Source: an uncultured Chloroflexia bacterium (GTDB lineage: Bacteria > Chloroflexota > Anaerolineae > Anaerolineales > UBA4823). Taken from it: a DNA stretch of 64,000 nt. A program made the translations under genes and the position numbers. The notes beneath the pieces were generated by a model. The model made no database searches. It was not told the DNA's origin and saw only the letters and a program-made list of their open reading frames with translations. This document shows, one piece after another, positions 2,858 through 46,934 of the stretch. The stretch lies in contig CAVWGW010000018.1 of NCBI GenBank assembly GCA_963754615.1, forward strand, positions 7,160 to 71,159, written 5' to 3'. Numbering within the stretch: position 1 is the stretch's first letter; the number at the start of each line of letters is the position of its first letter.

Positions 2858-2875
2858 TCAAGGATCGAGACGCAC

Positions 2876-3868: not shown

Positions 3869-3884
3869 CCGCAGGAGTCATGCT

Positions 3885-8296: not shown

Positions 8297-9457
8297 TTAC
8301 TTTTTCGCAGCTTCTTTCGGCTTGAACAGGGATTGGATCATGGTCACTGGCGCCGCCAGGCAGCCCTGGTTATCGCTGGGTTCAGTACCAATCAGAATTC
8401 CTACTGTACTCCAGCCTTTTTCCACGGCCTTTTGCTCTGCACTGCCCTCTCCGTACAGCTCGCCGGCTGCCTGGTAAGTGGCTTGTGCTGCTGCTAGAAA
8501 ATTGGAGCTTGATGACAGCTTGTCTCGCAGCGTCACATACCAGATCCGCCCCGCTTTTTCCCAGGCATATCCACCCATTTCGGTGGCAGCGATATAGAAC
8601 GCACGGTTTGGGATCCCTGAATTGATGTGCACGCCGCCATTATCTTCATAGGTGCTGACATAATCTTTCATATGCGCGGGTTGAGGATCCTTCCCTAAAA
8701 CGGGGTCATCATAAGCTGTTCCAGGCGCCTTCATCGAGCGGATGCCCACGCCGTTGACCCGGCTGGTGAAAAGACCCGCCCCGATGATCCAATCTGCTTC
8801 TTGAGCCGTCTGGTTCAGGCTTTTCTGCTTGACCATCGCGCCAAACACATCCGACATCGACTCGTTCAATGCCCCTGGTTGTCCCTGGTAAGCCAGGGCT
8901 GCTTCGTATTGCGTGACGCCGTGTGATAGCTCATGACCGATTACGTCGATAGAGATTGTAAACCGGTTGAATAACCGCTGCTCCTCGGGGATATCCTCAT
9001 CCCCGTCCCCGTAAACCATCTGTTTCCCATTCCAAAAAGCATTGTCATAGCCTTTGCCATAATGAACCGTGGAATCCAGCCGCAGCCCGTTGCCATCGAT
9101 CGAGTTGCGCTGGTAAGCATCCAGGAAGAGGTCAAATGTATAGCCAGAGCCATCATATGCCTCATTTACTGCCACATCGGAAGACGGAGGCGCGCCTTCT
9201 TCACGGACTTTTACACCAGGCAGCGTCGTCCCAGAACCTGCATCGTAAATTATGCGTTGTTTAACCGCTGGACCGGCTGCCGCCAGAGGCCCATATTTTG
9301 GCATTTCGGTGAGAGCCTGGCGCTGGCCTCGGAACTGCCCGGAAACCGATAGCGATTCCAGGGCACGCCCTTTTTGGATGGGGGTGCCGTTCTCCACAAT
9401 ACTTCGCAGCATGTAGGGCGGAATAATACATTGAGAATAAGGAATTGGGTCGCTCAT
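8297..9457 (-). CDS. M4 (thermolysin-family) zinc metallopeptidase, protealysin-like
   Basis: Motifs HELSHGVTQ (HExxH), GALNESMSDVFG (third zinc ligand Glu) and GGVHINSGIPNRAFY are present. The N-terminal extension is short, lacks a signal peptide and contains IIPPYML (compare the PPL motif of protealysin-like propeptides). I chose the start at MSDPIPYS because GGAGA lies 7 nt upstream; the ORF track start is 9508. Confidence 0.85.
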   Translation of the reverse strand: MSDPIPYSQCIIPPYMLRSIVENGTPIQKGRALESLSVSGQFRGQRQALTEMPKYGPLAAAGPAVKQRIIYDAGSGTTLPGVKVREEGAPPSSDVAVNEAYDGSGYTFDLFLDAYQRNSIDGNGLRLDSTVHYGKGYDNAFWNGKQMVYGDGDEDIPEEQRLFNRFTISIDVIGHELSHGVTQYEAALAYQGQPGALNESMSDVFGAMVKQKSLNQTAQEADWIIGAGLFTSRVNGVGIRSMKAPGTAYDDPVLGKDPQPAHMKDYVSTYEDNGGVHINSGIPNRAFYIAATEMGGYAWEKAGRIWYVTLRDKLSSSSNFLAAAQATYQAAGELYGEGSAEQKAVEKGWSTVGILIGTEPSDNQGCLAAPVTMIQSLFKPKEAAKK

Positions 9458-9628
9458 CTGATTGTCTCCTTTGTTTAACACTTTAGCAGGAATCGTGTAG
9501 AAATGCAAGACCCAAATTCGATAAAAACACTCCGTTTTATGGAATTGTCATTGCGGCATGTGAATCCTTGTTGACGTGCATCCTTATATCATCTAAAATA
9601 AAACCGAATAACATAAAAGGAAGGATCT

Positions 9629-10825: not shown

Positions 10826-12652
10826 ATGTTCGATATCAAAAATTTTCAGCCACTTCCGCCTGTCAACCGTCTGATCGGCGAAATGCCCAAGATCGGCATC
10901 CGACCCGTTATCGACGGGCGGCGCAAAGGCGTCCGCGAATCCCTCGGAGGATCAAGACCATGGCGCTCGCTAGCACCACAGCTGATTTTTTGAGCGCCAA
11001 TCTACGCCATTCCAATGGACTGCCAGTCGAATGTGTTATCTCCGATACCTGCATTGGGGGCGTGGCGGAGGCAGCTCAATCTGCGGAGAAATTTGCTCGC
11101 CTGGGCGTGGGTGTGTCGCTGACCGTAACCCCTGCTGGTGTTATGGCTCTGAGACGATGGATATGGATCCGCTGATTCCGAAGGCAGTGTGGGGTTTCAA
11201 CGGCACCGAGCGCCCTGGGGCAGTTTACCTGGCTGCTGTGCTGGCTGCCCACAACCAAAAAGGCCTGCCTGCCTTTGGCATCTATGGACATGATGTGCAG
11301 GATGCCGGAGACACTACCATCCCTGCCGATGTCCAGGAGAAGCTGCTGCGCTTTGCCCGCGCTGGCCTGGCTGTAGCTGCGATGAAGGGAAAATCATACC
11401 TCTCGATGGGTGGCGTTTCAATGGGCATCGCCGGCTCGATCGTCAACCAGGATTTCTTCGAGAGCTACCTGGGCATGCGTGTTGAAGTCATCGATGAGAG
11501 CGAGTTCATCCGCCGTATCCACGAGACGCATCTATGATCCCGATGAATACCAGCGCGCTCTCAAGTGGGTCAAGGGATACTGCAAAGAAGGCCGTGAATA
11601 TAATCCGCCCGCCATGCAGCGCAACCGCGCTCAGTAAAGATAACGATTGGGAATTCGTCGTTAAAATGACCATGATTGCCCGCGATCTAATGATCGGCAG
11701 CCCGCGCCTGGCGGAGATGGATTTTGGCGAGGAGGCCTTGGGACATAATGCTCTGGTTGGCGGCTTCCAGGGGCAGCGCCAGTGGACTGATCATTTCCCC
11801 AACGGCGATTTTATGGAAGCCATCTTGAACTCATCCTTTGATTGGAACGGCATTCGGGAGCCTTTCGTCTTGGCGACAGAAAACGATAGCCTGAACGGCG
11901 CTACGATGCTCTTTGGGCACCTGCTTTCCAATACCGCCCAGGTTTTTGCCGATGTCCGCACATATTGGAGTCCAGAGGCTGTCCAGCGGGTCACAGGTTA
12001 CCAGCTCTCGGGTCTGGCAGAGAACGGCTTTATCCACTTGATCAACTCAGGCGCGGCCACCCTGGATGCTACGGGGATGCTCAAGCGGGAGGGGGAGCCG
12101 GTCATGAAACCTTTTTGGGAGATCACCGCAGATGAAGTTGCCCAGTGCCTGGAGGCTACCACCTGGTATCCAGCCCGTACCGAATATTTTCGCGGCGGCG
12201 GGTACTCTTCCGGTTTCCTGACCCGCGGCCAAATGCCCGTTACCATGTCGCGCCTTAATTTGGTCAAGGGTCTTGGCCCGGTTTTACAGCTTGCTGAAGG
12301 CTATACGGTGGACCTGCCTGATGATGTTTACCAGAAGTTAAATGAGCGCACCGATCCCACCTGGCCTACCCACTGGTTTGTGCCTCGCCTTACCGGCAGC
12401 GGTCCTTTCCGAGATGTGTATTCCGTGATGAATCACTGGGGCGCCAACCACGGGGCGTTAAGCTATGGTCACATCGGCGCGGACATGCTCTCCCTGGCTT
12501 CTCTATTACGCATTCCGGTCACCATGCACAATGTTTCAGAAGAGAAGGTTTTCCGTCCCAGTGTATGGAATGCATTTGGAGCCCAGGATCCGATGGGCGC
12601 TGATTACCGGGCTTGCGTAAATTTCGGACCTCTTTATGGAAAGTGGGCATGA
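10826..12652 (+). pseudogene. fucI: L-fucose isomerase, split over five frame segments (four single-nucleotide frame changes)
   Basis: The segments join end to end against E. coli FucI as I recall it:
- 10826 to ~10949, frame +2: [26 protein letters not shown]
- ~10951 to 11132, frame +1: [42 protein letters not shown]
- 11133 to ~11525, frame +3: [43 protein letters not shown]
- ~11527 to 11634, frame +1: [18 protein letters not shown]
- 11636 to 12652, frame +2: [43 protein letters not shown]
RBS AAGGAGA is at 10814-10820. Confidence 0.8.
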
Positions 12653-14136
12653 GTCCTGACAAAGCGGACTTGTTGGCTTTCGACTTGGGGGCTGAGAGTG
12701 GGCGAGCCATCCTCGGGCATTTCCGAGATGATTTGCTCAAGTTGGAAGAAATTTATCGCTTCCCAAATAATCCAGTGCAGGTTCAAGGCAGCCTGCACTG
12801 GGATGTTCTGCAGCTTTGGAGTGAAATTCAGCAGGGCCTGAAGTTGGCTGCACAGTCTTGCGGGAGTGATCTGCGCGGAGTGGGGGTGGATACCTGGGGG
12901 GTTGATTTTGGCTTGTTGGCTGAAGATGATACCTTGATCGGCAACCCTTACCATTACCGTGATAGCCGTACAGATGGAATGGTGGAATGGGCCTTCCAAC
13001 GTCTGCCTCGCCAGGAGATCTACCAGGTGACCGGCATCCAGTTCATGCAGTTGAACAGCCTTTTCCAGCTGTTGGCGATGGTGAAAAGCCGCGCCCCGGC
13101 CCTGCGAATTGCTAGGCATTTCTTGACCATGCCCGATTTGTTCAACTTTTGGCTCACTGGGCGCAAAGCGAATGAGTTCAGCATTGCCACGACCACCCAG
13201 TGTTTAACCCCAATTTGGGAGATTGGGCCTGGGAGATGCTCCGGAAGCTGGATATCCCCACGCATCTTTTTGGCGAGGTCATACAGCCCGGCACCATCGT
13301 CGGCGAGCTGCGCCAGGCGATTGCAGAAGAATGCGGCTGCGCTCAAATTCCCGTGCTGGCTCCCGCCACGCACGATACCGGTTCAGCAGTCGCAGCTGTG
13401 CCTGCCAGGACTCCCGATTATATCTTTCTCAGCTCGGGCACCTGGTCTTTAATGGGGGTAGAGCTGAGCCAGCCTCTCATCACTCCCGAATCCCTGGCCT
13501 ATAATTTCACCAATGAAGGGGGCGTTTGTGGTACCATCCGTTTCTTGAAGAATATCATGGGTCTTTGGTTGGTGCAGGAGTGCCGCCGCGATTGGGCGCG
13601 GGCGGGATTATCTTACACCTACAATGAGCTAACGACCATGGCCTCCCAGGCTCCAGCCTTCATGGCTTTTATCGATTTCGAGCGATGCACGCTTCCTGCA
13701 TCCCGGCGATATGGTTTCTCGCCTGCAGGATTATTGCCAGGAGACCGGCCAGCCTATCCCTGAAACACCCTCAGCCATCATCCGCTGCTGCCTGGAATCC
13801 CTGGCACTCGAATACCGTTGGGTTGCCGAGAGCCTCGAAAAGCTTCTCGGGCGTTCCCTGCCCGTCATCCATATTATTGGAGGCGGCTCGCAAAATACCC
13901 TGCTGAACCAGTTTACCGCCGATGCTGCCGGGCGTGAGGTGGTCGCCGGACCGGTTGAAGCCACTGCCATCGGTAACCTGCTCATCCAGGCTTTAGGCTT
14001 AGGATTGTTCTCTTCCCTTTCCGAGGCGCGGGCGGTGGTTCGGAATTCATTCGATGTTTCGCATTACTCGCCCAGGGATCATCACGCCTGGGAAGCTGCT
14101 TACAGCACCTACCTGAAGCTCAAGAAAGCCTCTTGA
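12649..14136 (+). pseudogene. Rhamnulokinase-family FGGY kinase (L-fuculose/L-rhamnulose kinase), split over three frame segments
   Basis: ATGA overlap with the fucI stop. Frame +1 reads [31 protein letters not shown] to ~13203. Frame +3 reads FNPNLGDWAWEML..ATHDTGSAVAAVP..LSSGTWSLMGVE..FTNEGG..LKNIMGLWL..AFIDFE to ~13682. Frame +1 resumes with DARFLHPGDMVSRLQDYCQETGQPIPE..IHIIGGGSQN..VVAGPVEATAIGN to 14136. Confidence 0.8.
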
Positions 14137-19512: not shown

Positions 19513-21003
19513 ATGAAAACTGCTCGTTTTGAAGTGTTGAGTCAAACTGAGATCGAACGCATCCATTCCGCCTCGATGGAAATTCTAGCCGATGTGGGTA
19601 TCAAAGTCAATTTCAAGAAAGCTCGCGACATATTCCGCGAAGCTGGGGCCGATGTGGATGAGCAGTCCCTGGCGGTCAAGATCCCAGAGAAGCTCGTTCG
19701 TTGGGCGGTGGACCAGGTGCCAAAACAGTTTTCTCTCTTCGGGATCGATGGCGAATTTCATCTGAATATCGGCCCTGATCAAACTGCACCTGTCTTTGCT
19801 GGCCTGGGAACTCCCACACGGATGATCGATTTGGAAAGTGGTGCAATCCGCCCCGCGACCAAACAGGATATGATCGATCATATTATTTTGATAGACGCTT
19901 GCAGCCATATCCACAATTCCCAAATGGACATTTGGCCTGACGATATCCCCATGACGACCATCCACTCGGAGGCGATTTGGGCCTGGGCACACCATAGTCG
20001 AAAACCCTATGGCATGGGTTGTTATGGCTATCTGCCCACTTGGGATATGATGCGCATGATGGCGATTGCGGTTGGCGGAAAGGAAGAGCTGAAGAAACGA
20101 CCGCGCTTCTTCGCGATTTGCTCTGTGGTCAGCCCGTTGCAAATGGATCAGGCGCAAGCCGAAGGGTTGTTGATTTGTGCCGAATACGGGCAGCCGGTCA
20201 CGCTGGCTCCTGAAGCCATCGCTGGATCTACAGCACCTGTGACCTTAGCTGGTTTGGTTGCCCAGGAAAATGCAGCTATTTTGGCGCATATCACCCTGGC
20301 GCAAATCTTCCGCCCTGGAACTCCGGTTATGTATGGGACAGTCTCTACCACAGCCAATATGCGTTATGGTACGGTCACCCTTGGGTCGATGGAAACGGGC
20401 TTGATCACCGCGGCCTCTGCGCAGATGGCTCGATTTTATGGGTTACCGATCCGCAGCGTGGGTGGTGCCACCGAGGCCAAGCGCGCGGACCTGCAGGCAG
20501 GTTTTGAGCGCATGGGTACACTGCTCCCGGCAGTATTGGCAGGAGTTAACCTGATCACCTGTGCGGGCACCCTTGACAGCACCATGCTGGAGAGTCACGC
20601 TCTACTCTTGCTGGATGATGAGATCTGTGGAGCAGCTCTTAGGTTAGCACGCGGCATTTAGGTTAATGAAGATACGCTTGCTCTAGATTTGATCAAGAAG
20701 GTGGGCTTTTCAGGCAACTACATTTCTGCGAAAGAAACCTCCCGGCTTTTTCGTAAAGAGTTATTTATCCCGACCCTGTTTTCACGCGAGCCCTTTGAAA
20801 CCTGGGAAAAAGAAGGCAGCCGGCTTGCCATCGACCATGCTCGAGATCGCGCAATTGAAATTCTTGCCAAACACCAACCTCGTGAAGTGGACCCAATTCT
20901 TGAAAATGAGTTGGATCGCTTCCGCCAGTCCGTCGCGGCGCGCAACCTGGAAGATTTTTATCTTTTCGAGACCGAAGAAAAACAGGATTACACCGCTTTA
21001 TGA
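19513..21003 (+). pseudogene. MttB-superfamily methyltransferase (non-pyrrolysine type) containing one in-frame TAG at 20659-20661
   Basis: ORFs 19513-20661 and 20689-21003 are in the same frame, separated only by TAG and in-frame sense codons (...ALRLARGI-TAG-VNEDTLALDLIKKVGFSGNYIS...). Together they give about 496 codons, the normal MttB-family length. The canonical Pyl position (AGSOSDAK in M. barkeri MttB as I recall it) reads VGGATEAK here. Confidence 0.65.
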
Positions 21004-22362: not shown

Positions 22363-23619
22363 ATGGACGATTACGATTTCGAGACCCTGGCAGTCCATGC
22401 CGGTGAAGAGGCTGATCCCTCTACCGGAGCTCTGCGCCTGCCTTTGCACATGGCTACCACCTTCAAGCTGCCCAAGTTCGGGATCAAGCTGTTCGATGCC
22501 CTGACAATGGATTCAGCCAACCCGCCCTTTGCTTATACGCGCTGGGGCAATCCTACCTTGCGCGCTTTAGAAGAACGCCTTTCTGCGCTGGAAAGTGCTG
22601 AAACCGCTGTTGTGACCGCCAGCGGGATGGCGGCAGTATCCGCTTTGATTTTCACCTTCTTGAGCAGCGGTGACCACCTGATCGCTAGCGAAGTCTGTTA
22701 TGCAGGTACGGTCGAGCTGTTTGGGCTGTACCTGAGGCGTTTCGGTATCGAAGTCAGCCTGGTAGATACCAGTGATTTAGAAGCGGTTCAAGCAGCACTC
22801 CAGCCTAATACAAAGATGATCTATGCTGAAACACCCGCTAATCCCATTCTGCGCATCTCGGATATTTCGGAACTATCCAAGATCGCACATGCAACCGGAG
22901 CCTTGCTGGCAATTGACTCCACTTGGGCTAGCCCTGGCTTGCAAAAGCCTATCGCACTGGGCGCCGACCTTGTTGTGCACAGCCTGACGAAATACTTGAA
23001 TGGGCATGGCGATGCTTTGGGCGGCGTTGTACTCGGCGCGCAAAGAAACATACAGCGCATCCGAAAAGAGATGCTGGTACACCTGGGCGGCGCCCTCAGC
23101 CCTTTCAACGCCTGGCTCATCCTGCGTGGCCTGGTCACGTTGCCCATGCGGATGATGCAGCACTGCCAGAACGCTCAGTCAATTGCTCAATTCCTGGAAA
23201 GCCATCCCAAGGTGGAGCGAGTGTTGTACCCGGGGCTGGAAAGTCACCCACATCATTTACTAGCCGCTCGTCAAATGACTGGTTATGGGGGGATGCTCAC
23301 TTTCCGCCTCAAAGGTGGGTTGGGTGCAGCCATCACGCTGGCAGAAAAGATCCGCTTGTTCTCTTATGCCACTTCACTCGGGCATGCCCACAGCTTGCTG
23401 TTTTTTTACCCAACCGATCTATACATCGATTCTTTACCTTTCTACACCCCTGAGCAAAAAGAGCGTATCCGCGAATGGACTGGCGAAGGGATCATACGTG
23501 CCAGTATTGGTTTGGAAAATGTTGATGATTTGAGACGCGATTTAGACCAGGCGCTATACGCACGCACCTTTAAGGGATGGCTCGGTCCGCTGGCATACCG
23601 AGTTATGAGGAAGCGTTAG
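22363..23619 (+). CDS. PLP-dependent Cys/Met-metabolism enzyme (methionine gamma-lyase / cystathionine gamma-synthase family)
   Basis: Starts 1 nt after the preceding stop. YTRWGNPT, the PLP-lysine context HSLTKYLNGHGDALGG and C-terminal IRASIGLE are present. Confidence 0.85.
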   Translation: MDDYDFETLAVHAGEEADPSTGALRLPLHMATTFKLPKFGIKLFDALTMDSANPPFAYTRWGNPTLRALEERLSALESAETAVVTASGMAAVSALIFTFLSSGDHLIASEVCYAGTVELFGLYLRRFGIEVSLVDTSDLEAVQAALQPNTKMIYAETPANPILRISDISELSKIAHATGALLAIDSTWASPGLQKPIALGADLVVHSLTKYLNGHGDALGGVVLGAQRNIQRIRKEMLVHLGGALSPFNAWLILRGLVTLPMRMMQHCQNAQSIAQFLESHPKVERVLYPGLESHPHHLLAARQMTGYGGMLTFRLKGGLGAAITLAEKIRLFSYATSLGHAHSLLFFYPTDLYIDSLPFYTPEQKERIREWTGEGIIRASIGLENVDDLRRDLDQALYARTFKGWLGPLAYRVMRKR

Positions 23620-24514
23620 TTACCTTTTCCCTCTCCGAGAGCACCATCCCAATCAAGATCAGCGTCATGCCGATCCCGCCCACCAGCGTAACGGTCTCGT
23701 GCAGCACCAGTACCGACGCAATTATCGTGATGATTGGCACGATGTAAATATATACGCTGGTCTTCACTGGGCCTAGGAGGTAGACTGCATAATTCCAGGT
23801 GAAAAAGCACATTGCCGAAGCCACAATCCCCAGGAAGATCAGGTTGAACAGGTTCGGCAGCACAGCCAGGCGCGCCAATCCCAGGTGGAAGTCGAAAAAA
23901 GGCAGGGTGGGAAGCAAGAAAAGAAAACCATAGAAAAAAACCTTGGCTGTCACGGCCAGCATCGAACTTTGCTGGGCACTGATTTTCTTGATTAACACGC
24001 TGTAGAACGCCCATACCAGCGCCGCTAGGATCGAGAGCAGATCACCCAGGGGATTTAGTTTTAGAACAACGCTTCCGTTAAAAGCGATCAGGATGATGCC
24101 TGTGATGGCTGCCGTGAAACCGATGAAGAAGTTGGCTTTGAGCTTTTCTTTCAAGAAGAGACGGCTGACCAGCGCGGTGAATAACGGGGCTATCGAAACC
24201 AGTACGCTGACATTGGCTGCCAGGGTGTAAGACAAGGCGATATTCTGGAACAGGAAATAGAGGGTCACGCCGCACAAACCTGCAGCCATAATTTTCCATT
24301 CATCTCTCAGGGTAGGTCTATCCAGTTTGACCTTGGATAGGCGCGGCGGGCTGACAATGAGCAGCACTAGAACGGCCAGGATCAGCCGGTAGAACATGAT
24401 CTCAACCGGTGAGAAGGGGACCAGCAGCACCTTGATGGAAATAAAGGTAATACCCCATACGAAGATCGTGAAAAAGGCGGCGAGATGCCCCAGGACTTGT
24501 TTTTGTGGTTTCAC
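23603..24514 (-). CDS. DMT-superfamily (EamA-like) transporter
   Basis: 303 aa, about 10 hydrophobic helices, two EamA-like repeats. Its 3' end overlaps the convergent PLP enzyme by 17 nt. Confidence 0.85.
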   Translation of the reverse strand: MKPQKQVLGHLAAFFTIFVWGITFISIKVLLVPFSPVEIMFYRLILAVLVLLIVSPPRLSKVKLDRPTLRDEWKIMAAGLCGVTLYFLFQNIALSYTLAANVSVLVSIAPLFTALVSRLFLKEKLKANFFIGFTAAITGIILIAFNGSVVLKLNPLGDLLSILAALVWAFYSVLIKKISAQQSSMLAVTAKVFFYGFLFLLPTLPFFDFHLGLARLAVLPNLFNLIFLGIVASAMCFFTWNYAVYLLGPVKTSVYIYIVPIITIIASVLVLHETVTLVGGIGMTLILIGMVLSEREKVTNASS

Positions 24515-24646
24515 TGGTGTCAGGTTATACCACTTTTTTAGATAAGTTTACAAAAGTGAAAGCTAACCCCGCCTTTTCTTTGGTTCTTGAAAAAAAAGTT
24601 ATATACTCAATTTTATAGAATCACAAGAAGACGTAAGGGAGAATTT

Positions 24647-27600
24647 ATGCCTAATCCTAATTTGCTGATTTATAACGCCACCTCTCAACAATGGGATCGT
24701 TTTCCGCTAAATCGTCAGGATTTTTCTATCGGGCGCACGGGCGATAATGACCTGGTGTTGGATAACACGCTGGTGTCCCGCCAGCATGCCCGCCTGCACC
24801 TGGATAAGCGAGGTGTGTGGATTATGGATCTCAACTCGGCGAATGGCGTGCTGATTAATAATACGCGCATCCAACCCGGGCAGTGGGTGCTGCTTCCCGG
24901 CAGCGCAGCAATTAATATAGGCCAGAGCACGCTGCGCCTGGAGCTTGCCTCCCAGCCAGTTCAGTCAATCAAGCCGGCCCAGCCTGCTCCTCGGACTCCC
25001 CAGAAAAATAAATGGCTGCCGGTCTTGGGCGTGTTTGGGGTTGTTTTGTGTGTGTGCCTGGCTGCCTCCGCGGGAGTGGCAGCCTGGAAGAATTACCCAA
25101 AGCTGGCTGGTCTCCTCCCTGGCCAGACCGCTCAGACTCAATCTCAAGATCCTGTGCCAACCCCAAGCGCGGAACCCATGACTCCGCCGCAGACGGTAGA
25201 AACGCTGCCAGTCAGCGCGGGTGGCCTTGCGGTACAAGACAGCTACGGTGTTTCCGTAGAAATCCCGGCCTCGGTGCTCCCAGAGGGTCAGTCTGCCAGC
25301 CTGGAATCGGCCAGTTTCAGCCAGGGGATGCAGCAGGAGCTTGAAAAAGCTTATACAGTTAACACGCTGGCATACAGCGTGACGGCTGTGGATCAGGATG
25401 GTACCGGTCAGGTTAATCTGAGCTTGCCGGCGCCCTCGGCTGACTTGCGTCTGGCAGTGCTGGTTAACGACAAATACACCGGTGTGTTGGATGTTGAACC
25501 GCAGAATGGCCTGCTGCAGTTGAATCTTTTCCTTGGCGCACCGCTGCAAGCCAGCAGCGCCCCGACGGAGACTCAATACATCGCCTCTAACCGCTATTTT
25601 GTCGTTACCCCCAAAACCGGCGCATCGATTCCGTCTCAAGGTAACAATCTGCGGATCAGCTTCTCCATGCAGGCGGAGGACCAAGGTGGGAAGTCTTGCA
25701 TCACGGAATTCTGGTTGCAAAGTCACTGTTGGCGAAATCAAGCCGGTACTGTGTACGTCTTCTGGGAAAATAATGTGCCTGCTGACCTCAAGGACACCGA
25801 ATACCTGCGCATTGAGGACATGATCAAAGCAGTTGAGGAAATTATGCGAGCGTACCACCAGGATTGGCATTTCAATAACGCCGCGATCAGCAAGAGCAAC
25901 CCGGTCTATATCATCATCGACCCGAGTGAGCCTGAACCGACCTACAGCCAGAAAACCGGTAATGTTTACCTGAACTGGGGTGTGGTTGGTTCGATCTCCA
26001 GTCAGGAGAACCACTGCGCCCTGGCGCATGAGCTGATGCACTGGACCGAAGACAGCGCTTATACCATGAACGCAGCCGCTTTATCTAACAGCAAAGCCTG
26101 GTGGTTAGAAATGGCAGCTGAGAACGGTTCCTTCATGATCGATTCGGCTTGCATTGATCGCAATCTGGAGACTTATGGACACGCAGTCACCAGCAGCGAC
26201 TTGCTGCCTCTCCAGTCAGAGTCCCTGGTTTGGGAGAGCAAGGAGGGGGCGCGCTATATCCAAGCTTTGCAGGTCTATGTCTCACTTTGCTCAGGTGGTG
26301 CAAACTGCGCCATGAGCCAGGATCAGTTTGTTGCCGCTATCAATGCAGGCAGTTACCCCTTTGATGATGCCGGTGTGCTCAGCACCTACCAGCGCAGCGC
26401 CAAGGATATGGGATTGTTCATGATGGGTAAGCCCCCGGCGGAGGCAAACACCTCCGCTCATCTTCCACCGTCCACCAACGAGGGCGGTGCTTTTCCCGAA
26501 TATATCTGGCTGAAGGCCGTCCCAGCCCCTAAGATCGAAGTCAGCGATACCACGAAACAGATCCAGTCTACCAGCAGCACAGAGGCAGCCGTCAATGCCT
26601 CCATCGCCCAGGGAGGCGTTTATCCACTGTGGGTGAGCAACGGCAAGGGGTCGCCAGGAAATCCCCGTGAAGGGTATACCTCTTTGCCTGTCATGTTGAA
26701 GATCGATGCTGGCACCAGGTTCTGGTACGAATTGGACTCTGGCGAGGCGGTCTTCCACGACGGTGGTAAGGAGCTGACTCTGGGTCCGCTGTCTGATAAG
26801 CTGGGTACCGGGTTGGTCAGGCTGGTGGCAGTCGCGCCAGATGCTGCAGCTACCTTCAATGCCAAGGTCAATCCTGTAGACTTGAGCGGGGATTGGGTTG
26901 CGCAGCTCAGCAATCCCTCTGTCAACATCATCGACTGTCCCTCATCAACGGACGATGATAGTGAAAACGGTTTTGATACCAGCGAAGTTGACAAGATTGA
27001 GATGCTGTCGATCTTAAGCGGATACGGGACATATGCTGCCGATCCCGCGGTGAGTGATGGATCTCACCTGATCTGGCAGGGCACCCTGCCAGAAGGGGCT
27101 ACTGCCGAATTGGATATTACCATCAAACCTGAAGTGATCGAAGTCAAATACCGGATCGACATCCCCAGACCAGACAGTGAGGGGCTGCTGCCGCCCTGGC
27201 TCGGTCCAAAGTTTGGGCAGACCTGGCCGCCTCGCTTGCAATCTGCAGGCTGGCTGAACAGCCTGTCAGGCAGCCCGGTTGGTTTTGCGCTAATGGCTGG
27301 GTCCCTCCTGCTGGCTTTGGTTTGGCTGGTCGGGATACCCAGGCTTAAGGCCTATCAGGAAGGTCACCTAGCTTTCTCGCCCAGGGTGGTGCGTTTTGGA
27401 AATACGGCCCTGTTGTCTCTGGCTCTCCTTGTTGGGGCTGTCTGGCTGTCAGGATGCGTTGGCTTTGGAATTTATGGTAACTTTGAGGGGACCATTACCT
27501 TCAATAAGCTGGAGTATTTGGATCCCGACGCACCAGCCTCTGCGGTTGTTCCAGGAGGAGAAGCTGTAGAGGGCCTGACCTGGAAGCTGCATGAAGGACA

Positions 27601-27757
27601 AGAGGTGAACACCATGGACATCTTCATCGAGGTCAGCAGCACCGATGCGGATGGTAAGGAGACCAGTGAAGTGCATGAGTGTAAATTCACGGTTACCTCT
27701 TCGGCAGACGGTGTTATCGGGCCAGCCGATATGGTGAATTTGAATCAAGGTGAGTGA
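24647..27757 (+). CDS. Large membrane protein: N-terminal FHA domain, TM helix, ~700-aa region with HExxH (gluzincin-like), two further TM helices, acidic C-terminal tail
   Basis: ATG at 24647 lies after AAGGGAGA; the ORF track start is 24587. The FHA region is FSIGRTGDNDLVLDNTLVSRQHARL..DLNSANGVLINN. TM1 is WLPVLGVFGVVLCVCLAASAGVAAW. HELMH is at nt 26027-26041, followed by WWLEMAAENG. The C-terminal TMs are FALMAGSLLLALVWLVGI and ALLSLALLVGAVWLSGCVGFGIYG. Confidence 0.8.
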   Translation: MPNPNLLIYNATSQQWDRFPLNRQDFSIGRTGDNDLVLDNTLVSRQHARLHLDKRGVWIMDLNSANGVLINNTRIQPGQWVLLPGSAAINIGQSTLRLELASQPVQSIKPAQPAPRTPQKNKWLPVLGVFGVVLCVCLAASAGVAAWKNYPKLAGLLPGQTAQTQSQDPVPTPSAEPMTPPQTVETLPVSAGGLAVQDSYGVSVEIPASVLPEGQSASLESASFSQGMQQELEKAYTVNTLAYSVTAVDQDGTGQVNLSLPAPSADLRLAVLVNDKYTGVLDVEPQNGLLQLNLFLGAPLQASSAPTETQYIASNRYFVVTPKTGASIPSQGNNLRISFSMQAEDQGGKSCITEFWLQSHCWRNQAGTVYVFWENNVPADLKDTEYLRIEDMIKAVEEIMRAYHQDWHFNNAAISKSNPVYIIIDPSEPEPTYSQKTGNVYLNWGVVGSISSQENHCALAHELMHWTEDSAYTMNAAALSNSKAWWLEMAAENGSFMIDSACIDRNLETYGHAVTSSDLLPLQSESLVWESKEGARYIQALQVYVSLCSGGANCAMSQDQFVAAINAGSYPFDDAGVLSTYQRSAKDMGLFMMGKPPAEANTSAHLPPSTNEGGAFPEYIWLKAVPAPKIEVSDTTKQIQSTSSTEAAVNASIAQGGVYPLWVSNGKGSPGNPREGYTSLPVMLKIDAGTRFWYELDSGEAVFHDGGKELTLGPLSDKLGTGLVRLVAVAPDAAATFNAKVNPVDLSGDWVAQLSNPSVNIIDCPSSTDDDSENGFDTSEVDKIEMLSILSGYGTYAADPAVSDGSHLIWQGTLPEGATAELDITIKPEVIEVKYRIDIPRPDSEGLLPPWLGPKFGQTWPPRLQSAGWLNSLSGSPVGFALMAGSLLLALVWLVGIPRLKAYQEGHLAFSPRVVRFGNTALLSLALLVGAVWLSGCVGFGIYGNFEGTITFNKLEYLDPDAPASAVVPGGEAVEGLTWKLHEGQEVNTMDIFIEVSSTDADGKETSEVHECKFTVTSSADGVIGPADMVNLNQGE

Positions 27758-27891: not shown

Positions 27892-28704
27892 TCACTTGAT
27901 GAACTCCGCCACATCCTGTGCGAACTCCTTCTCCCCCATGACCTCGTGCCCCCTGCCTGGGTAAATCTTGAGCCGCGCCTCCGGGATCATGGCCGCCATC
28001 TCCTTGGCTGAATCTACCTCGAAGTAAAAATCGTTCCCACCGATCAAGATGAGGACCGGAGTTTTGATCCGTTTTAAGCTCTCAGTTGAGTTGTGGTTTA
28101 ATTCCGCCCTGATTTCGACCAGCACATCTTGCCGGTAGGTCGGGCTGGGAATGCCGAGCAGTGCGCCTCCGAGCAGCCATGCTACCCCTCGCATGATCCA
28201 GCGGATAGGTCCGGGTGGGTATAGCTCTTGAACGATCAAGGCTGCCGCCTCCCGGCTTTTCCCCTGGCTGAGCAGCTCAGCATATTGGGTATCCAGCAGC
28301 TTGCCTGCCTCCGTGATTTTATGAGTGGCCATGGCAATGATCAGATGGTCGCAAAGGTCGGCGTGATCGGCTGCGAAGTGTTGGGCAATGGTCCCGCCAT
28401 AAGACATCCCGATTACAACCGCCACATGCCCGGCGAATTGCATCTGGATGAGTTCAGCGATATCATCTGACATATCCTTCGTAGTGTGCCCCTCGGGTAA
28501 GCCTGATTTTCGGCTGACCATATAGAGGGTATATTCGCTGAGAAAACGTTTCAAGCTCCCGATCATCATATCGAAGCCCATCCCCATGGGAATGCTGTTT
28601 CCTGGACCACCCATGAGCAGCAGCATGATTTTTTTTCCCTGGCCGGTGCGTGCATAGGGGATGTTATTGATTGTTATTCCGTAGAAGGGTTTGGAATTTG
28701 ACAT
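27892..28704 (-). CDS. Alpha/beta-fold hydrolase
   Basis: 270 aa. The nucleophile elbow is GMSYGG, the oxyanion region is LLLMGGPGN, and a C-terminal His lies in GRGHEVM. Confidence 0.75.
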   Translation of the reverse strand: MSNSKPFYGITINNIPYARTGQGKKIMLLLMGGPGNSIPMGMGFDMMIGSLKRFLSEYTLYMVSRKSGLPEGHTTKDMSDDIAELIQMQFAGHVAVVIGMSYGGTIAQHFAADHADLCDHLIIAMATHKITEAGKLLDTQYAELLSQGKSREAAALIVQELYPPGPIRWIMRGVAWLLGGALLGIPSPTYRQDVLVEIRAELNHNSTESLKRIKTPVLILIGGNDFYFEVDSAKEMAAMIPEARLKIYPGRGHEVMGEKEFAQDVAEFIK

Positions 28705-28738: not shown

Positions 28739-29212
28739 TCACTTTTCTTTGCTGATTTTCACCCTCATCCTCCCGATGAAGGCTTCCCACACCGGGTAAT
28801 GGCTTCCCTTCCAGATCTGCCCCCGAAAAGCCTCTGCCTGTTCTTCTGACCAGCCCAGGTTTTTCTGCGCGTAGAGCGAGTAAAATGCCGTTGCCCGGTA
28901 ATTCGCCGCGCAGTGGAGCAGGATTTTTCTTTCCATTAACTGTTTCATACGCTGGTCGAAAGCCTCAAAATCGCTCTCCTTTGGATTTTCCCAATCCACC
29001 GGAATGTGGGTATAGTCCATCCCAAGCGAATGCACCAGTCCCGCCTCGTCCTCCAGCGAATACTGCCGGTCGAGCGTCGCCAGGTTGATCACCGCCTCGA
29101 AACCTTCTTCCGCGGCTGCCTTCAGCTGCTCCTCCGTCGGCTGCCCGCCAGTGATAAGCTGATCGTTCACTTGGATATAGTTATATATTTCATCCGTGCT
29201 CATGCGATCCAT
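28739..29212 (-). CDS. Small phosphatase-like protein (DUF442 / dual-specificity phosphatase-like fold)
   Basis: 157 aa. The pattern LITGGQPTEEQLKAAAEEGFEAVINL ... LLHCAANYRATAF is a P-loop-like Cys-Arg motif. The assignment is by pattern only. Confidence 0.45.
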   Translation of the reverse strand: MDRMSTDEIYNYIQVNDQLITGGQPTEEQLKAAAEEGFEAVINLATLDRQYSLEDEAGLVHSLGMDYTHIPVDWENPKESDFEAFDQRMKQLMERKILLHCAANYRATAFYSLYAQKNLGWSEEQAEAFRGQIWKGSHYPVWEAFIGRMRVKISKEK

Positions 29213-32071: not shown

Positions 32072-33673
32072 TCATTCCCCAATCCGTCGAACAATACAGA
32101 AATCAGCTCCATCTTTTCCAACACTTAAGACGAGCGGTTCATAATAACGAATGTTTTGATCATCATCAAAACGGGTGGTAAAGAGCATGATGCTTCCCTC
32201 CGGTATCTGGTCTTTGACCGGCCATAAATCTTCAATAAGGAGTGAATCACCGGCAACTTCGGCTGCCAGATCTGGGTTTCGCAATACATAGACTTTGGTC
32301 ACTTCAGGCCGGGTTTTCTGAATCTCTTCGAGGGCTTCTTGATAGCATGTCAACCAGAAGTCAGTTTCAAAGCGCCGGAACGCACCACCCGTTCCGCCCA
32401 CAAAGCTGTTGTAATAAGTATATTCGTAAGGAAATAACCTGAGAATGCCAAAGATCCCAGAGAATACCATCACCGTGACCAGGATCACCTGCATCCAGGT
32501 CTTTCTCACCCAGGTGAAAAGGCGCTCAAAGGCAAACCCGGTGAAGATGAAGATGGGAGGCAGAATAAACATAAAATGTCTCAATCCATCATAAAGCGGT
32601 GGTTTATTGATGATCACATAAAAAAAGGGCAACAAGAACCAAAGCAGCACCGGTAAAAGCGACTGCCACTCGATCTTCTTGTAGGATTTCTTCCAGGCCA
32701 GTGCAGCCAGGCCGGAGAGGAAGAGCAGCCAGACGACCTCGGTGAAATTAATGAAAACCGTCACTGGAAAATAGGTGAATGGCAGGTGGTTCGAGCGATA
32801 GTAAACCCCCTGGAAAAGGACTGAGACGATGACGGGGTTTTTGGACATGTATTGAAATACTTCGAGATATCTGGTGATCGGGTTATCCCATAAATAAGGC
32901 CAGGTCAGGTAATTTACCAGGAAGGCAATCAAGACCATGGTCACCAGATTCGGGATCGACCTCCGGCCATATTTAACCAGTGCATAAAGGGCGATGAGGA
33001 TACCAGCGAATGGTCCCAGCATACGGATTGAGGCCAACAACCCGAGTGTGAGCCCTGCTGGCAGCATGTCCAGGAATAAACAAGCCAGCCGGGTAGTGAA
33101 TTTCGGAGGGCGATCCTTACCTTTCCCCAGGCGATCGATGCACCAGTAGCCGAGGTAGATGGCTGCCAGGAAGAAGCTCATGAAGGGGATATCCTTCGGG
33201 TTGATAAAGGCATGCCCCCAGAATATAGGCTGGGTTGAGAATAAAAGCGCCGCGGCAAAAGCGGCTCTCTTACTCATCCAGCGTAAACACAGGAGGTAGA
33301 AAAAAATGATCCCAGCCTGAAATGAGAGAAAGTTGATGATGTGCCAGCTTGGATACCAGGGCACTTGGAATATGGAGGTCAAAACCCTAACCAGCATCCC
33401 CGCCATCAAGAGGTAAGCTGGGCCGTACATTTTATTGCCTTCTTGAGGTGGTCCAAAAGCTTTCTCAATCTGAAACTGCCCGTTCAAGCGTTCCTGGATC
33501 GAGTATGCATAGGAAATTGTGGAGGCATATCGATAAAACCCAGGTTCGTCCCACGAGGCGCCGTATACCTGGAAGGTAAAGATGCCAATGATGAGATTGA
33601 TCAGGATTAAAACGATGAAAGGAAGATGAGGCAGGCGTGTCAAACTGCGAACGTCAAAGCTGAGACGAGGCAT
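32072..33673 (-). CDS. GT-C fold membrane glycosyltransferase (GT39/ArnT/PMT_2-like)
   Basis: 533 aa with more than 10 TM helices. The first periplasmic loop carries SWDEPGFYRYA (the acidic DE motif typical of polyprenyl-phosphate-sugar-dependent GT-C enzymes). The C-terminal soluble domain is about 120 aa. Confidence 0.7.
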   Translation of the reverse strand: MPRLSFDVRSLTRLPHLPFIVLILINLIIGIFTFQVYGASWDEPGFYRYASTISYAYSIQERLNGQFQIEKAFGPPQEGNKMYGPAYLLMAGMLVRVLTSIFQVPWYPSWHIINFLSFQAGIIFFYLLCLRWMSKRAAFAAALLFSTQPIFWGHAFINPKDIPFMSFFLAAIYLGYWCIDRLGKGKDRPPKFTTRLACLFLDMLPAGLTLGLLASIRMLGPFAGILIALYALVKYGRRSIPNLVTMVLIAFLVNYLTWPYLWDNPITRYLEVFQYMSKNPVIVSVLFQGVYYRSNHLPFTYFPVTVFINFTEVVWLLFLSGLAALAWKKSYKKIEWQSLLPVLLWFLLPFFYVIINKPPLYDGLRHFMFILPPIFIFTGFAFERLFTWVRKTWMQVILVTVMVFSGIFGILRLFPYEYTYYNSFVGGTGGAFRRFETDFWLTCYQEALEEIQKTRPEVTKVYVLRNPDLAAEVAGDSLLIEDLWPVKDQIPEGSIMLFTTRFDDDQNIRYYEPLVLSVGKDGADFCIVRRIGE

Positions 33674-42196: not shown

Positions 42197-42898
42197 ATGA
42201 AACGCTCTGAGATCAATCAAATCTTGCGTTCCTCCATTCAATTCATTCATGATCATCACTTTGCCCTGCCCCCGTTTGCATTTTGGACCCCTAAAGAATG
42301 GAAATCGAAGGGTGAAGAAGTACGCGAAATTGTAGATCGCAGGCTGGGTTGGGATATCACCGATTTTGGCAGCGGTGATTTCGAACGGATTGGTCTTTTC
42401 CTGTTCACCATTCGAAATGGCAGCCCCGAAAACCTGAAAACCTTGCTGGGGAAGCTGTATGCAGAAAAGCTGTTGATCATCCAGGTTGGCCAGGTGACGC
42501 CCTTGCATTATCATGCCAATAAAATGGAAGATATCATCAACCGGTCTGGAGGTAGGCTGGGGATTGAGCTTTTTGAGTCTTTGCCGGATGGAGGTTTGGA
42601 CCGTGCTGCAGAGGTGTTGGTCTCACTGGATGGCGTCCAGCACCGCCTGCCGGCAGGCAGCCAGGTTTTTCTAACGCCAGGTGAAAGCATTACCTTAACG
42701 CGGGGCTTGTACCACCGCTTTTGGGCTGAGGATGCCCCCGTGTTGGCAGGCGAGGTCTCTTCGGTCAATGATGATGACGCTGATAATTTCTTTTATGATT
42801 CTCCGGGTCGCTTTCCGGTGATCGAGGAGGATGAGCCACCGCTGTATTTGCTGTGTAATGATTACCCTCTTTATTACCACCCTGAAAAGAGGGTGTGA
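42197..42898 (+). CDS. D-lyxose/D-mannose ketol-isomerase family (cupin)
   Basis: MKRSEINQILRSSIQFIHDHHFALPPFAFWTP...EKLLIIQVGQVTPLHYHANKMEDIINR...VNDDDADNFF matches the YdaE-type lyxose isomerase pattern. The ORF track start at 42029 would overlap the previous gene. Confidence 0.75.
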   Translation: MKRSEINQILRSSIQFIHDHHFALPPFAFWTPKEWKSKGEEVREIVDRRLGWDITDFGSGDFERIGLFLFTIRNGSPENLKTLLGKLYAEKLLIIQVGQVTPLHYHANKMEDIINRSGGRLGIELFESLPDGGLDRAAEVLVSLDGVQHRLPAGSQVFLTPGESITLTRGLYHRFWAEDAPVLAGEVSSVNDDDADNFFYDSPGRFPVIEEDEPPLYLLCNDYPLYYHPEKRV

Positions 42899-44092
42899 TG
42901 GTTAGAAAGTGCGCCGTTGTTGCCGGTCATATCTGCCTGGATATTTTTCCGGGCCTGGAACATCTCTCGCCAAGTGGGTTCGGAAAACTTTTTGAGGCCG
43001 GCCAATTACTGATCGTTGGACCAGCAGCCATCTCAACAGGTGGACCGGTCTCGAATACCGGGCTGGCATTGCATACACTGGGAATCTCCATGCGCCTTAT
43101 GGGAAAAGTAGGCGCGGATATATTCGGACATGTGATCCGAGAAATTATTAAATCATATGCGCCTGACTTGGCGACGGGTATGGTGGTCGACTTACACGTA
43201 AATACTTCTTATACGGTGATCCTGAGTTTTCCAGGAGAAGACCGCACTTTTATACACCATCCTGGCGCTAACGACACCTATGGTGTAGAAGATATTAACT
43301 ACAACTTGGTCGCGCAGGCGGATCTTTTCCACTTCGGGTACCCACCTGTGATGCGCAGGATGTACTCGGAAGGAGGACAGGAGTTAGCAGAAGTCTTTCG
43401 CCGGGCGAAGATGACCAGTTTGACACACAGCCCGCTCACTTCGTTGGATATGACCTTTCCAGACCCTGGTACACCTGGAGGTCAGGCCGACTGGCGCCTG
43501 ATTTTGAAAAGGGCGCTGCCGCATGTGGATATCTTTCTGCCCAGCCTCGAAGAGTTGTTATACATGCTGCACCGGGAGCAGTTCGATGAGCTTGTCAGGT
43601 GCTTTGGAGCAGGGAATCTGACCTGAAGCTGTATCGCCTGGTCTCCTGCACCGGTTGAGCAGCGAGCTGATCGAGATGGGGGTTAAGATCGTGGCGATCA
43701 AGCTGGGCGGGCGCGGGCTTTACCTGCATACCGCTTCCTGTGAGACGATGGATCCGCTGGCAGGCAGCCTGGATATTTCTGCCTGGAGCGGGAAAGAGCT
43801 TTGGGCGCCTTGTTTCCAGGTGCAGGTGGCTGGCACGACCGGCGCAGGGGATGCCACCATAGCCGGTTTCTTGAGCGGGCTGCTGCGCGGCCTCCCCCCA
43901 GACGAAGCAATGACCATGGCAGTGGCAGTTGGGGCATGCAACGTAGAGGCCGTCGATGCCTTAAGCGGGATCTGCTCTTGGGAAGATACAGAAGCGCGGG
44001 TGAAGGCTGGCTGGCAGCGCCATGTGATGTGGCTGGAAGAGCCTGGCTGGGAATGGGACCCGGCAGCCGGATTATGGGTAGGGGAGGGTTGA
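42895..44092 (+). pseudogene. PfkB-family carbohydrate kinase, split by a +1 frame change near 43621
   Basis: Frame +1 runs 42895-43626 (...ELVRCFGAGNLT-stop). Frame +2 is open from 43622 (PEAVSPGLLHRLSSELIEMGVKIVAIKLGGRGLYL...) through the PfkB signature GTTGAGDATIAGF to 44092. Confidence 0.7.
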
Positions 44093-44209: not shown

Positions 44210-44237
44210 CTGCGCTGCGATGGGACAGGAAGAGCCG

Positions 44238-44654
44238 ATGAGCGAAGTAAACGAACCAACAAACCCCGATGCTTATCTTCACGTGCAGCGGGGGCCTTTA
44301 GCGGGTATTATCATTCCTATTGACTCGGGGGCGAATATCTTTGGCAGGGCAGAGGGGCACATCCTGCCGGATGAGCATGTGTCCCGGCGGCATGCCACCA
44401 TCAATGCGCTCTCTGGCGAATACATGCTGATTGACCTGGGAAGCTCAAACGGTACGGTCGTGAATGGTCAAAAGATCACTGGACCGGTGATGCTCCAACA
44501 CGGAGATGTGATCCAGTTCGGGGGAACGATCATGGGATTTTATATCCGGGGGATGGAGGGCAGCTTGATGAAGGGAACGGGGGCTGCCACACCGGCAGCA
44601 GCTCCGAACCAGCTTTCAGAAAGCACCCTTACGATTGTGAAGAACCCAAAATAA
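44238..44654 (+). CDS. Stand-alone FHA-domain protein
   Basis: GANIFGRAEGHILPDEHVSRRHATI..IDLGSSNGTVVNGQKI is an FHA core. ATG 44238 follows AGGAAG; an alternative in-frame ATG is at 44220. Confidence 0.8.
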   Translation: MSEVNEPTNPDAYLHVQRGPLAGIIIPIDSGANIFGRAEGHILPDEHVSRRHATINALSGEYMLIDLGSSNGTVVNGQKITGPVMLQHGDVIQFGGTIMGFYIRGMEGSLMKGTGAATPAAAPNQLSESTLTIVKNPK

Positions 44655-46541: not shown

Positions 46542-46934
46542 TGATAATTGTTAGGGTCTTCATAGAATCAAGGCATTTGGCTCTCAAAACTTGAAATCAT
46601 CCATAATGCCTATCTACTTCGAAAATGATCCCTGCTTGTATGCCTTTCTTCATGGTGACTCTCCTCAGCTTGTGCCATATACGAGGCTTAAGCATAGAAG
46701 TTCGCCTATCATCAATCCTCTCTGCCCTTAAGCACACCCTTATATAATGACAAATGATACGTGACTCACCATCGAAAAAGTGCCATAATAAAACCATAGA
46801 TTCCCCCCTGTGATATAACACTGAAATGGCAGGAACATGTCGTGACAATAAAACCGGATGATCATAAAAAACCCAGTCGCGGTTTTCTAAAAAATTACCG
46901 GAGTAATTCCATCTCAATACATAAGGAGTGCAGT

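Follow-up and report, generated by a model that had tools for sequence, protein, structure and literature searches.

A candidate FHA-linked, membrane-tethered gluzincin ectopeptidase from an uncultured Chloroflexia bacterium

In the type II membrane M1 aminopeptidases IRAP and APN, a single transmembrane (TM) helix joins a cytoplasmic N-terminal tail to a catalytic body outside the cell, and the tail of IRAP binds trafficking regulators. Membrane-anchored bacterial FHA proteins that are regulated by Ser/Thr kinases use their FHA domain to dock on phosphothreonine (pThr) sites produced by Hanks-type kinases, localizing or activating envelope machinery. In BlaR1 and MecR1 (M56), which unite a gluzincin domain and a signaling function in one membrane protein, the zincin domain is embedded among TM helices on the cytoplasmic side, and sensing is the task of a penicillin-binding domain outside the cell. 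The M60-like enzymes are glycoprotein- or mucin-specific gluzincins with carbohydrate-binding modules. Here we describe a gene at positions 24647-27757 of a 64,000-nucleotide stretch of DNA from an uncultured Chloroflexia bacterium (assembly GCA_963754615.1, contig CAVWGW010000018.1, positions 7,160 to 71,159 of the forward strand; hereafter the window), which combines an FHA domain with a predicted extracytoplasmic metallopeptidase module. We propose that its product is an FHA-docked, kinase-controlled extracytoplasmic zinc peptidase, and we give this statement as a whole a probability of about 0.55. The parts of the protein (FHA, gluzincin, lipobox) are of known kinds; within the reach of our literature searches, no description exists of an FHA-TM-ecto-gluzincin arrangement, and the combination of an internal lipoprotein-type signal with a covarying tail disulfide is unusual. 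A preliminary description of this DNA, made from its sequence alone, had known of no characterized protein of this kind, and our full-text literature searches likewise found no description of one.

We searched 1.8 billion cluster representatives exhaustively with a profile of the ectodomain alone. The resulting family comprises 143 clusters, of which about 70 are close to full length. Conservation was assessed in an alignment of 75 long family members, which share 18-60% identity with the window protein, and all counts out of 75 refer to it. From the N-terminus, the protein consists of the FHA domain, TM1, a linker rich in Pro, Gln and Thr, an ectodomain of about 700 residues, TM2, an Arg/Lys loop, TM3 and an acidic tail of 99 residues. 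The preliminary description had listed such parts in a single open reading frame (ORF) of 1036 amino acids, and we found every one of them at the place given for it. The features are as follows; confidence in the AlphaFold (AF2) models is given as the predicted local distance difference test score (pLDDT).

24635-24641, plus strand: Shine-Dalgarno sequence AAGGGAG, 5 nt 5' of the ATG, read from the sequence
24647-27757, plus strand: whole gene, 1036 codons plus stop, monocistronic
24647-24946, plus strand: cytoplasmic FHA domain, residues 1-100 (Pfam, PDB sequence matches, Foldseek)
25013-25087, plus strand: TM1, residues 123-147, WLPVLGVFGVVLCVCLAASAGVAAW (sequence inspection), with RTPQKNK just before it; predicted N-in, C-out
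25088-25189, plus strand: disordered stalk rich in Pro, Gln and Thr, residues 148-181 (pLDDT below 50 over residues 138-167)
25190-25612, plus strand: N-terminal beta-sandwich domain, residues 182-322 (AF2 strands)
25724-26482, plus strand: predicted zincin/gluzincin catalytic domain, residues 360-612 (AF2, block-mean pLDDT mostly above 94; Foldseek)
25943-25969, plus strand: edge-strand motif YSQKTGNVY, residues 433-441 (strands 432-434 and 439-442), P431 just before
26015-26017, plus strand: C457, covarying with C502
26027-26041, plus strand: HELMH, residues 461-465 (H461, E462, H465), in helix 453-469; 75 of 75 sequences
26099-26128, plus strand: WWLEMAAENG of the glutamate helix, residues 485-494, within helix 481-498
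26108-26110, plus strand: E488, candidate third zinc ligand (Glu in 68 and Asp in 7 of 75)
26120-26122, plus strand: E492, candidate His-orienting acid (Glu in 62, Asp in 10, another residue in 3)
26150-26152, plus strand: C502, covarying with C457
26501-26875, plus strand: second beta-sandwich domain, residues 619-743 (AF2 strands, block-mean pLDDT 87-98)
26888-27163, plus strand: third beta/alpha domain, residues 748-839, with C764 (AF2)
26936-26938, plus strand: C764, in the third beta/alpha domain
27278-27337, plus strand: TM2, residues 878-897, predicted out-to-in (sequence inspection; AF2 helix 877-896)
27338-27385, plus strand: predicted cytoplasmic TM2-TM3 loop bearing Arg and Lys, residues 898-913, after TM2
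27386-27457, plus strand: TM3, internal lipoprotein-type signal, residues 914-937 (n-region R-VV-R, h-region, lipobox L934-S-G-C937)
27458-27754, plus strand: acidic beta-hairpin tail domain, residues 938-1036, with C1012 (AF2 strands 938-1025)
27680-27682, plus strand: C1012, in the tail domain
27755-27757, plus strand: stop codon; protein of 1036 amino acids

The putative metal site is conserved across the family. H461, E462, H465 and W485 are present in every homologue, down to 18% identity; a protein of such composition is expected to contain 0.012 HExxH motifs by chance, and invariance among homologues so diverged excludes a chance occurrence. The preliminary description had placed HELMH exactly at 26027-26041 and had suggested that the motif and a downstream Glu be checked in homologues, where both proved to be kept: position 488 is acidic in 75 sequences and position 492 in 72. 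Also conserved, at 92% or more, are P431 (69 sequences), Y433 (70 sequences), Y472, W486, A491, Q523, W529 and Y537. In 58 sequences, 22 residues separate H465 from E488; the range is 19 to 28. E488 and E492 are separated by three residues and would lie on one helix face, as do the acids of the ExxxD arrangement in thermolysin. By this analogy E488 is more likely to be the third zinc ligand than the Glu of 'AENG', and E492 is probably the acid that orients a His ligand. The preliminary description had likened WWLEMAAENG to the third-ligand region of gluzincins; the acids there fit such a role in position and conservation, and the likelier ligand among them is E488. The YSQKTGNVY strand is probably the substrate-binding strand, in a position analogous to that of the GxMEN strand of M1.

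The predicted fold agrees with a gluzincin. The full-length AlphaFold model, made with the family alignment, has a mean pLDDT of 84.6 and a predicted template-modeling score (pTM) of 0.74; pLDDT exceeds 90 in the greater part of the ectodomain. Its catalytic domain consists of a backing helix (379-406), a three-stranded sheet (420-442), the active-site helix and the glutamate helix, in the order generally known for the zincin/gluzincin fold, and then a helical subdomain. In the N-terminal beta domain, pLDDT exceeds 90 at residues 181-300 and 311-320 and is 54 at residues 301-310. A fold search with the full-length model was swamped by FHA matches, and the fold result against PDB therefore rests on an earlier, ectodomain-only model with a pLDDT of 71. 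M1 enzymes made up 45 of the 48 best PDB matches in Foldseek (IRAP, PepN, ERAP1/2, LTA4H, tricorn F3 and EryP; PDB 4z7i, 2hpo, 3mdj and 1gw6 are among the best), with E-values of 1.3e-6 to 3e-3 and a probability of 0.9-1.0 for most; the alignments to IRAP, PepN and ERAP1 extended over 560-700 columns. The other three were ZmpA and BT_4244, both M60-like, and one GH115 at probability 0.21. Among viral models (BFVD), the best of the long matches were to enhancin (M60) and to an M1-like aminopeptidase. The window protein thus has M1-type architecture, an N-terminal beta domain placed like M1 domain I followed by a thermolysin-like catalytic domain. The preliminary description had named a non-catalytic, beta-rich, adhesin-like fold as one outcome that would speak against it; the model instead contains a zincin/gluzincin catalytic domain between beta domains.

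Membership of the M1 family itself was ruled out. The Peptidase_M1 hidden Markov model (HMM) did not match the window protein or any of 37 catalytic domains of the family at E ≤ 1, the GxMEN exopeptidase motif occurs in 0 of 75 sequences, and the spacing from HExxH to Glu is 22, as opposed to 18 in M1. The M1-like gluzincin context proposed in the preliminary description therefore holds for structure, where M1 aminopeptidases are the best matches, and fails for the HMM, the motif and the spacing. What is shared with M1 is the HExxH plus a Glu on the next helix and the order of N-terminal beta domain, thermolysin-like catalytic domain and beta-sandwich. In place of a helical domain of the ERAP1_C type, the window protein has two beta domains, a TM hairpin and the tail, and its cytoplasmic part, unlike that of the M1 ectoenzymes, is a folded FHA domain. 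These results support the view that the module is a gluzincin with M1-like domain order that forms a separate, uncurated family.

Weak sequence matches point in the same general direction. Seven Pfam families were matched by more than one of the 37 catalytic domains, and six of the seven are zincin or putative zinc-peptidase families (DUF6055, MPTase-PolyVal, M9, DUF5700, M48 and M90). DUF6055 (PF19527), which has been equated with MEROPS family M106 and called not properly described (PMC11241649), is the only curated family reached at the sequence level, by way of a distant member, P0031, whose HExxH region gives a score of 28.5 bits (cut-off 27). Five of the 37 catalytic-domain sequences match DUF6055 at E ≤ 1 (best 1e-6), and the window protein does not match it even at E ≤ 1. 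A remote kinship of the ectodomain family to DUF6055/M106 is possible; DUF6055 proteins differ in not being described with FHA domains, TM hairpins or lipobox signals. The best sequence-profile matches in PDB were three minigluzincins, in which the strand or strands and the HExxH helix were aligned at non-significant E-values of 0.085-0.8, and three non-peptidase chains also fell within E ≤ 10 (E 0.57-0.9). Minigluzincins such as selecase MJ1213 and projannalysin differ from the window protein in that they are soluble, come from archaea and have about 110 residues. The M60-like enzymes and enhancins (ZmpA, 6xsx; BT_4244, 5kd2; baculovirus enhancin) resemble it as extracytoplasmic gluzincins with flanking beta-sandwiches, but are weaker structural matches than M1 and gave no HMM match; a carbohydrate-binding module is not recognizable in the window protein.

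The preliminary description had claimed a cytoplasmic FHA domain, and the HMM match, the key residues and the modeled fold all agree that it is a bona fide one. Pfam PF00498 matches residues 27-92 with an E-value of 2.1e-15 and 57.3 bits (cut-off 20.7). The pThr-binding residues are all present (G29-R30, S44-R45-Q-H47 and N66-G67), and conservation among orthologues is 90% or more at S44, R45, H47 and G67. In the full-length model the block-mean pLDDT is 82 for residues 1-10 and 92-97 for residues 11-100. The modeled domain has the eleven-stranded beta-sandwich fold and aligns with the FHA structures of GarA, FhaA, OdhI and EmbR at target-normalized TM-scores of 0.8-0.89 (Foldseek), with a root-mean-square deviation of about 2 Å for GarA, FhaA and OdhI; GarA, FhaA and EmbR were also the PDB sequence matches. 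The domain is probably functional as a pThr binder. The mycobacterial proteins FhaA, FipA/FhaB and Rv1747, SctD/YscD of type III secretion systems, TagH/Fha of type VI secretion systems, and GltG likewise begin with a cytoplasmic FHA domain that precedes a TM segment. Similarity to these proteins is confined to the FHA domain, NCBIfam scores lie far under the family cut-offs, and none of them carries an extracytoplasmic zincin domain.

The gene product is predicted to be a three-pass membrane protein. Peaks of a crude 19-residue Kyte-Doolittle scan lie at residues 126-144, 879-897 and 914-932, in accordance with the hydrophobic helices at 123-147, 878-897 and about 914-936, that is, with the one TM segment and Pro/Gln-rich linker followed by two more TM segments of the preliminary description. 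The length of the stalk after TM1 differs between orthologues. TM1 is predicted to be oriented N-in and C-out since the FHA domain is cytoplasmic and homologues are secreted: in distant homologues the sole such element is a signal peptide at the N-terminus, of lipoprotein type in P0162 and of Sec type in P0158 and P0083. The Arg/Lys cluster between TM2 and TM3 is found family-wide, and its charge fits a cytoplasmic turn. In the hairpin-less homologues P0053, P0074 and P0098 the tail domain is fused straight onto the ectodomain, which argues that the tail domain is extracytoplasmic. The HExxH module is likewise predicted to be extracytoplasmic, as the homologues with a signal peptide only, the Cys pairs and the Arg/Lys loop agree; the topology proposed earlier, with the zinc site outside and the FHA domain inside, is thereby supported. 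The analogy with BlaR1 was rejected because of this topology: the predicted orientation of the window protein is opposite to that of the M56 proteins, and it has no sequence or fold match to them.

A comparison across the family separates a conserved core, made up of TM1, the ectodomain, the TM hairpin and the tail, from an accessory FHA domain. The FHA domain is present in 15 of 75 long members (about 20%). In P0040, P0064, P0031, P0100 and P0104 one or two zinc ribbons occupy the N-terminus, and other N-termini consist of a DUF4214 domain (P0083), a short tail or a signal peptide alone. The FHA domain is therefore an exchangeable cytoplasmic adaptor, since sister lineages have zinc ribbons or nothing in its place, and kinase coupling is a lineage-specific add-on, not part of the family core. 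About 20 full-length orthologues, at 39-82% identity, were obtained by a word-indexed search, and their genome matches were all Chloroflexota, in metagenome-assembled genomes (MAGs) of Anaerolineae or Chloroflexia. One orthologue, P0014 (JGI), is labeled 'flagellar basal body-associated protein FliL', a probable annotation error that sequence analysis does not support.

The data thus show the architecture, the invariance of the motifs, the class of fold, the covariation of the disulfide cysteines and the accessory character of FHA. On this basis we infer a mechanism, in which metal binding and activity would be those of a gluzincin-type zinc metallopeptidase on the outer face of the cytoplasmic membrane. 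Zinc would be bound by H461 and H465 of the active-site helix and E488 of the next long helix, with E462 as the general base. The role of orienting a His ligand probably falls to E492, and that of stabilizing the transition state probably to Y537 or Y472. The catalytic domain would lie between the N-terminal beta-sandwich and two C-terminal beta domains. Since the exopeptidase motif GxMEN is absent, the substrate specificity is probably not that of M1 and is possibly that of an endopeptidase. The ectodomain would be tethered twice, by TM1 through the flexible stalk and by the TM2-TM3 hairpin, which would bring the chain back outside so that a 99-residue beta domain could be disulfide-bonded (C1012-C764) onto the ectodomain. 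In the cytoplasm, the FHA domain would dock onto a Thr-phosphorylated partner; the direction of the coupling would thus be from kinase to peptidase, and its purpose would be to set where or when the ecto-peptidase acts. We consider an active ecto-metallopeptidase very likely, and regard the odds of FHA-mediated control by a Ser/Thr kinase as even.

Several results weigh against this interpretation. Pfam and NCBIfam recognize only the FHA domain in the whole window protein and leave the module unassigned, and no link from the sequence of this protein to a known peptidase family reaches significance. The global TM-scores of the Foldseek matches are about 0.25, owing to differing domain orientations, and the likeness to M1 is local and architectural, not that of a rigid body. 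The TM topology is based on the hydropathy scan and on indirect arguments. The family is known only from metagenome assemblies of uncultured organisms, and most of the members that could be identified belong to Chloroflexota. As to the kinase, no gene for a Hanks-type Ser/Thr kinase or a PP2C phosphatase was found in the window, either by Pfam on about 50 ORFs or by a six-frame search for the kinase catalytic-loop motif, which agrees with the preliminary description. That description had also suggested looking for such genes beside orthologues. We examined the neighborhoods of five orthologue loci, a genome scan having located three further loci whose neighborhoods were left out; the five contained no kinase, PP2C, Lgt or Lsp gene beside the orthologue, and they had no neighbors in common with the window or with one another. 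Neither in the window nor in these five loci is a gene for a kinase, a phosphatase or a candidate substrate linked to the main gene. The link to a kinase consequently hangs on the FHA domain. Docking to Ser/Thr-kinase signaling, as first proposed, is thus favored by an FHA domain with its pThr-binding residues and disfavored by the lack of a linked kinase or PP2C gene in the window and the five loci.

Other explanations were weighed against the same evidence. The protein could be an outside-in receptor, whose ectodomain senses or cleaves a ligand and relays a conformational change or self-cleavage to the FHA domain, so that a cytoplasmic phosphoprotein is engaged or released. Three membrane passes and a double tether could pass on such a change, the module in the cytoplasm can be FHA or zinc ribbons and is exchanged as in modular receptors, and BlaR1 and MecR1 show zincin domains in transmembrane signaling. 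We nevertheless hold a receptor to be quite unlikely: in roughly half of the family or more, the N-terminus is either a very short cytoplasmic stretch or a plain signal peptide, which means that the core works without a cytoplasmic output domain; the TM2-TM3 loop is short and, save for its charge, poorly conserved; and FHA domains read phosphorylation and are not known to act as effectors. An unlikely, if slightly less so, alternative is a nutritional surface peptidase that trims extracellular peptides for uptake by a Chloroflexota cell fermenting proteins and sugars, with an FHA domain that clusters or positions the enzyme and has no signaling role. Many M1 enzymes are peptide-trimming ectoenzymes, and the M1-like fold would suit this role, as would the Opp/Dpp-type peptide ABC transporter and M4 protease encoded in the window and the absence of linkage to cell-envelope or signaling genes. 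However, the aminopeptidase motif GxMEN is missing from all 75 sequences, the gene lies at least 15 kb from the peptide transporter and is in no co-oriented operon with it, and a double tether, a disulfide-locked tail and cytoplasmic adaptors would be unusual for a bulk digestive enzyme.

If, finally, the HExxH were a relic in a dead pseudo-peptidase, the protein would be a binding or scaffold protein, either an adhesin or a sensor; such a protein would account for the lack of a curated peptidase HMM match to the window protein and for the several beta-sandwich domains that flank the catalytic domain, as in adhesins. Pseudo-enzymes typically drop active-site residues in some lineages, whereas here the His-Glu-His triad is invariant and both downstream acids are conserved in 75 sequences to 18% identity, a pattern of purifying selection on the active site that makes a dead enzyme very improbable.

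The C-terminal part of the protein raises a further, separate proposal. TM3 of the window protein, with R-VV-R, 17 hydrophobic residues and L-S-G-C937, has the form of a lipoprotein signal; it contains the pattern that we used to define a lipobox, [LVI][ASTVI][GAS]C after 7-22 hydrophobic residues and a positive n-region. The Cys is aligned in 61 of 75 homologues, including FHA-less ones, and among these 61 the lipobox is canonical in 44 and position -1 is Gly, Ala or Ser in 60; the median distance from the last Arg or Lys to the Cys is 16 residues, and the n-region has a median of 4 Arg/Lys. TM3 lies about 915 residues into the protein, far from the N-terminal position of a signal peptidase II signal. 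The tail that follows C937 was described earlier as acidic and of about 110 residues; it comprises 99, with 18 Asp/Glu and 4 Lys/Arg, and most of its blocks have a pLDDT of 86-97, with one at 79. A sorting signal of the sortase or exosortase type at TM2 and the Arg cluster was considered and rejected, as a conserved domain follows and no LPxTG or PEP motif is conserved.

Cysteine covariation bears on how the tail is held. C764 and C1012 co-occur in 56 sequences; both are absent from 5 that keep C937, and both are present in 3 hairpin-less sequences without C937. As the two covary with each other and independently of C937, the tail is predicted to be fastened to the ectodomain by a C764-C1012 disulfide. 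C457 and C502, jointly present in 10 sequences and jointly absent from 65, are also predicted to behave as a disulfide, and the Cys pairs 351/361 and 548/554 are conserved in the ectodomain. C937 would be left unpaired at the membrane surface, as expected of a lipid-modified Cys. It is possible, though doubtful, that the internal signal is functional, with Lgt lipidating C937 and signal peptidase II cutting before it. Such a cut would give two chains, FHA-TM1-peptidase-TM2-TM3 and a 100-residue lipoprotein, held together by C764-C1012. Full-text literature searches found no precedent for internal lipoboxes. A search for stand-alone tail lipoproteins with a 40-sequence tail profile returned only an orthologue fragment, P0166, a result that says little because the word index gave 438 candidates only.

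The start codon was assigned to ATG 24647, which is preceded by an AT-rich intergenic region and a strong Shine-Dalgarno site. A mechanical ORF list starts the frame at TTG 24587, which is without a Shine-Dalgarno sequence and was rejected, because all orthologues begin at the Met equivalent to ATG 24647. The gene is flanked upstream by a divergent EamA-family transporter gene (23603-24514, minus strand) and downstream by a convergent alpha/beta-hydrolase gene (27892-28704, minus strand). About 1 kb downstream, a dual-specificity-phosphatase-like protein of 157 amino acids is encoded (28742-29212, minus strand; PTP-NADK, E 1e-8). A homologue with 34% identity lies 5 kb from the orthologue in locus L003 (17957-18391), and none is present in the four other loci; we treat the proximity of this gene to the FHA gene as a coincidence. 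The second, stand-alone FHA protein, which had been noted at 44238-44654, is real and extends over 44220-44654 (plus strand); it has 144 amino acids, a Pro/Ala-rich tail and no TM segment. Its gene is 17 kb away, beside a class I Glu/Gln-tRNA synthetase gene on the opposite strand, and has no link to the main gene. In locus L001 (17729-23150; MAG JAKOUW010000017.1), the orthologue is followed by CHAT-SIR2_2 and nSTAND1-WD40 proteins, typical conflict or defense modules, a pair that is not kept in the other orthologue loci.

The rest of the window is devoted to sugar and peptide catabolism, with an ABC peptide transporter, glycosidases, sugar kinases and isomerases, and lactate-related enzymes. 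The Opp/Dpp-type transporter occupies 111-4916. A metallopeptidase of the M4 (thermolysin) family, with a match to a protealysin-type propeptide, is encoded at 8297-9508 (minus strand) and represents a second, conventional gluzincin in the window. A pfkB sugar kinase is in two pieces (42895-43626 and 43655-44092), and partial Pfam matches indicate that an L-fucose isomerase and an FGGY kinase are possibly split as well (11031-11537 and 11534-12652; 12613-13452 and 13200-13763). The split ORFs suggest frameshifts, which would mark either pseudogenes or MAG assembly errors. An MttB-superfamily gene (19513-20661, plus strand; 382 amino acids, covering profile positions 28-403 of 500) may encode a non-pyrrolysine MttB homologue or a truncated one. 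Three ORFs had no Pfam match at the thresholds used: 32072-33673 (minus strand, 533 amino acids), 46842-47744 (plus strand, 300 amino acids) and 62474-63484 (plus strand, 336 amino acids).

Members of this family are currently annotated as 'hypothetical' or, wrongly, as 'FliL', and the predictions made here would unite them in an ecto-metallopeptidase family of about 140 sequence clusters, tethered to the membrane and recognized by none of the curated database models. In the FHA branch, a pThr reader and a predicted extracellular protease reside in one polypeptide, through which Hanks-type kinases could position or gate proteolysis outside the cell. A link from kinase to protease has been proposed for envelope remodeling, and we know of no earlier case of so direct a form as an FHA-peptidase fusion. 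The internal signal raises a testable question, namely, whether Lgt and LspA process a signal 900 residues inside a polytopic protein. If they do, this would be an undescribed route from a polytopic precursor to a lipid-anchored, two-chain ecto-enzyme, and the cleavage could be a maturation or activation step of the peptidase that is coupled, in this lineage, to Ser/Thr-kinase signaling via the FHA domain.

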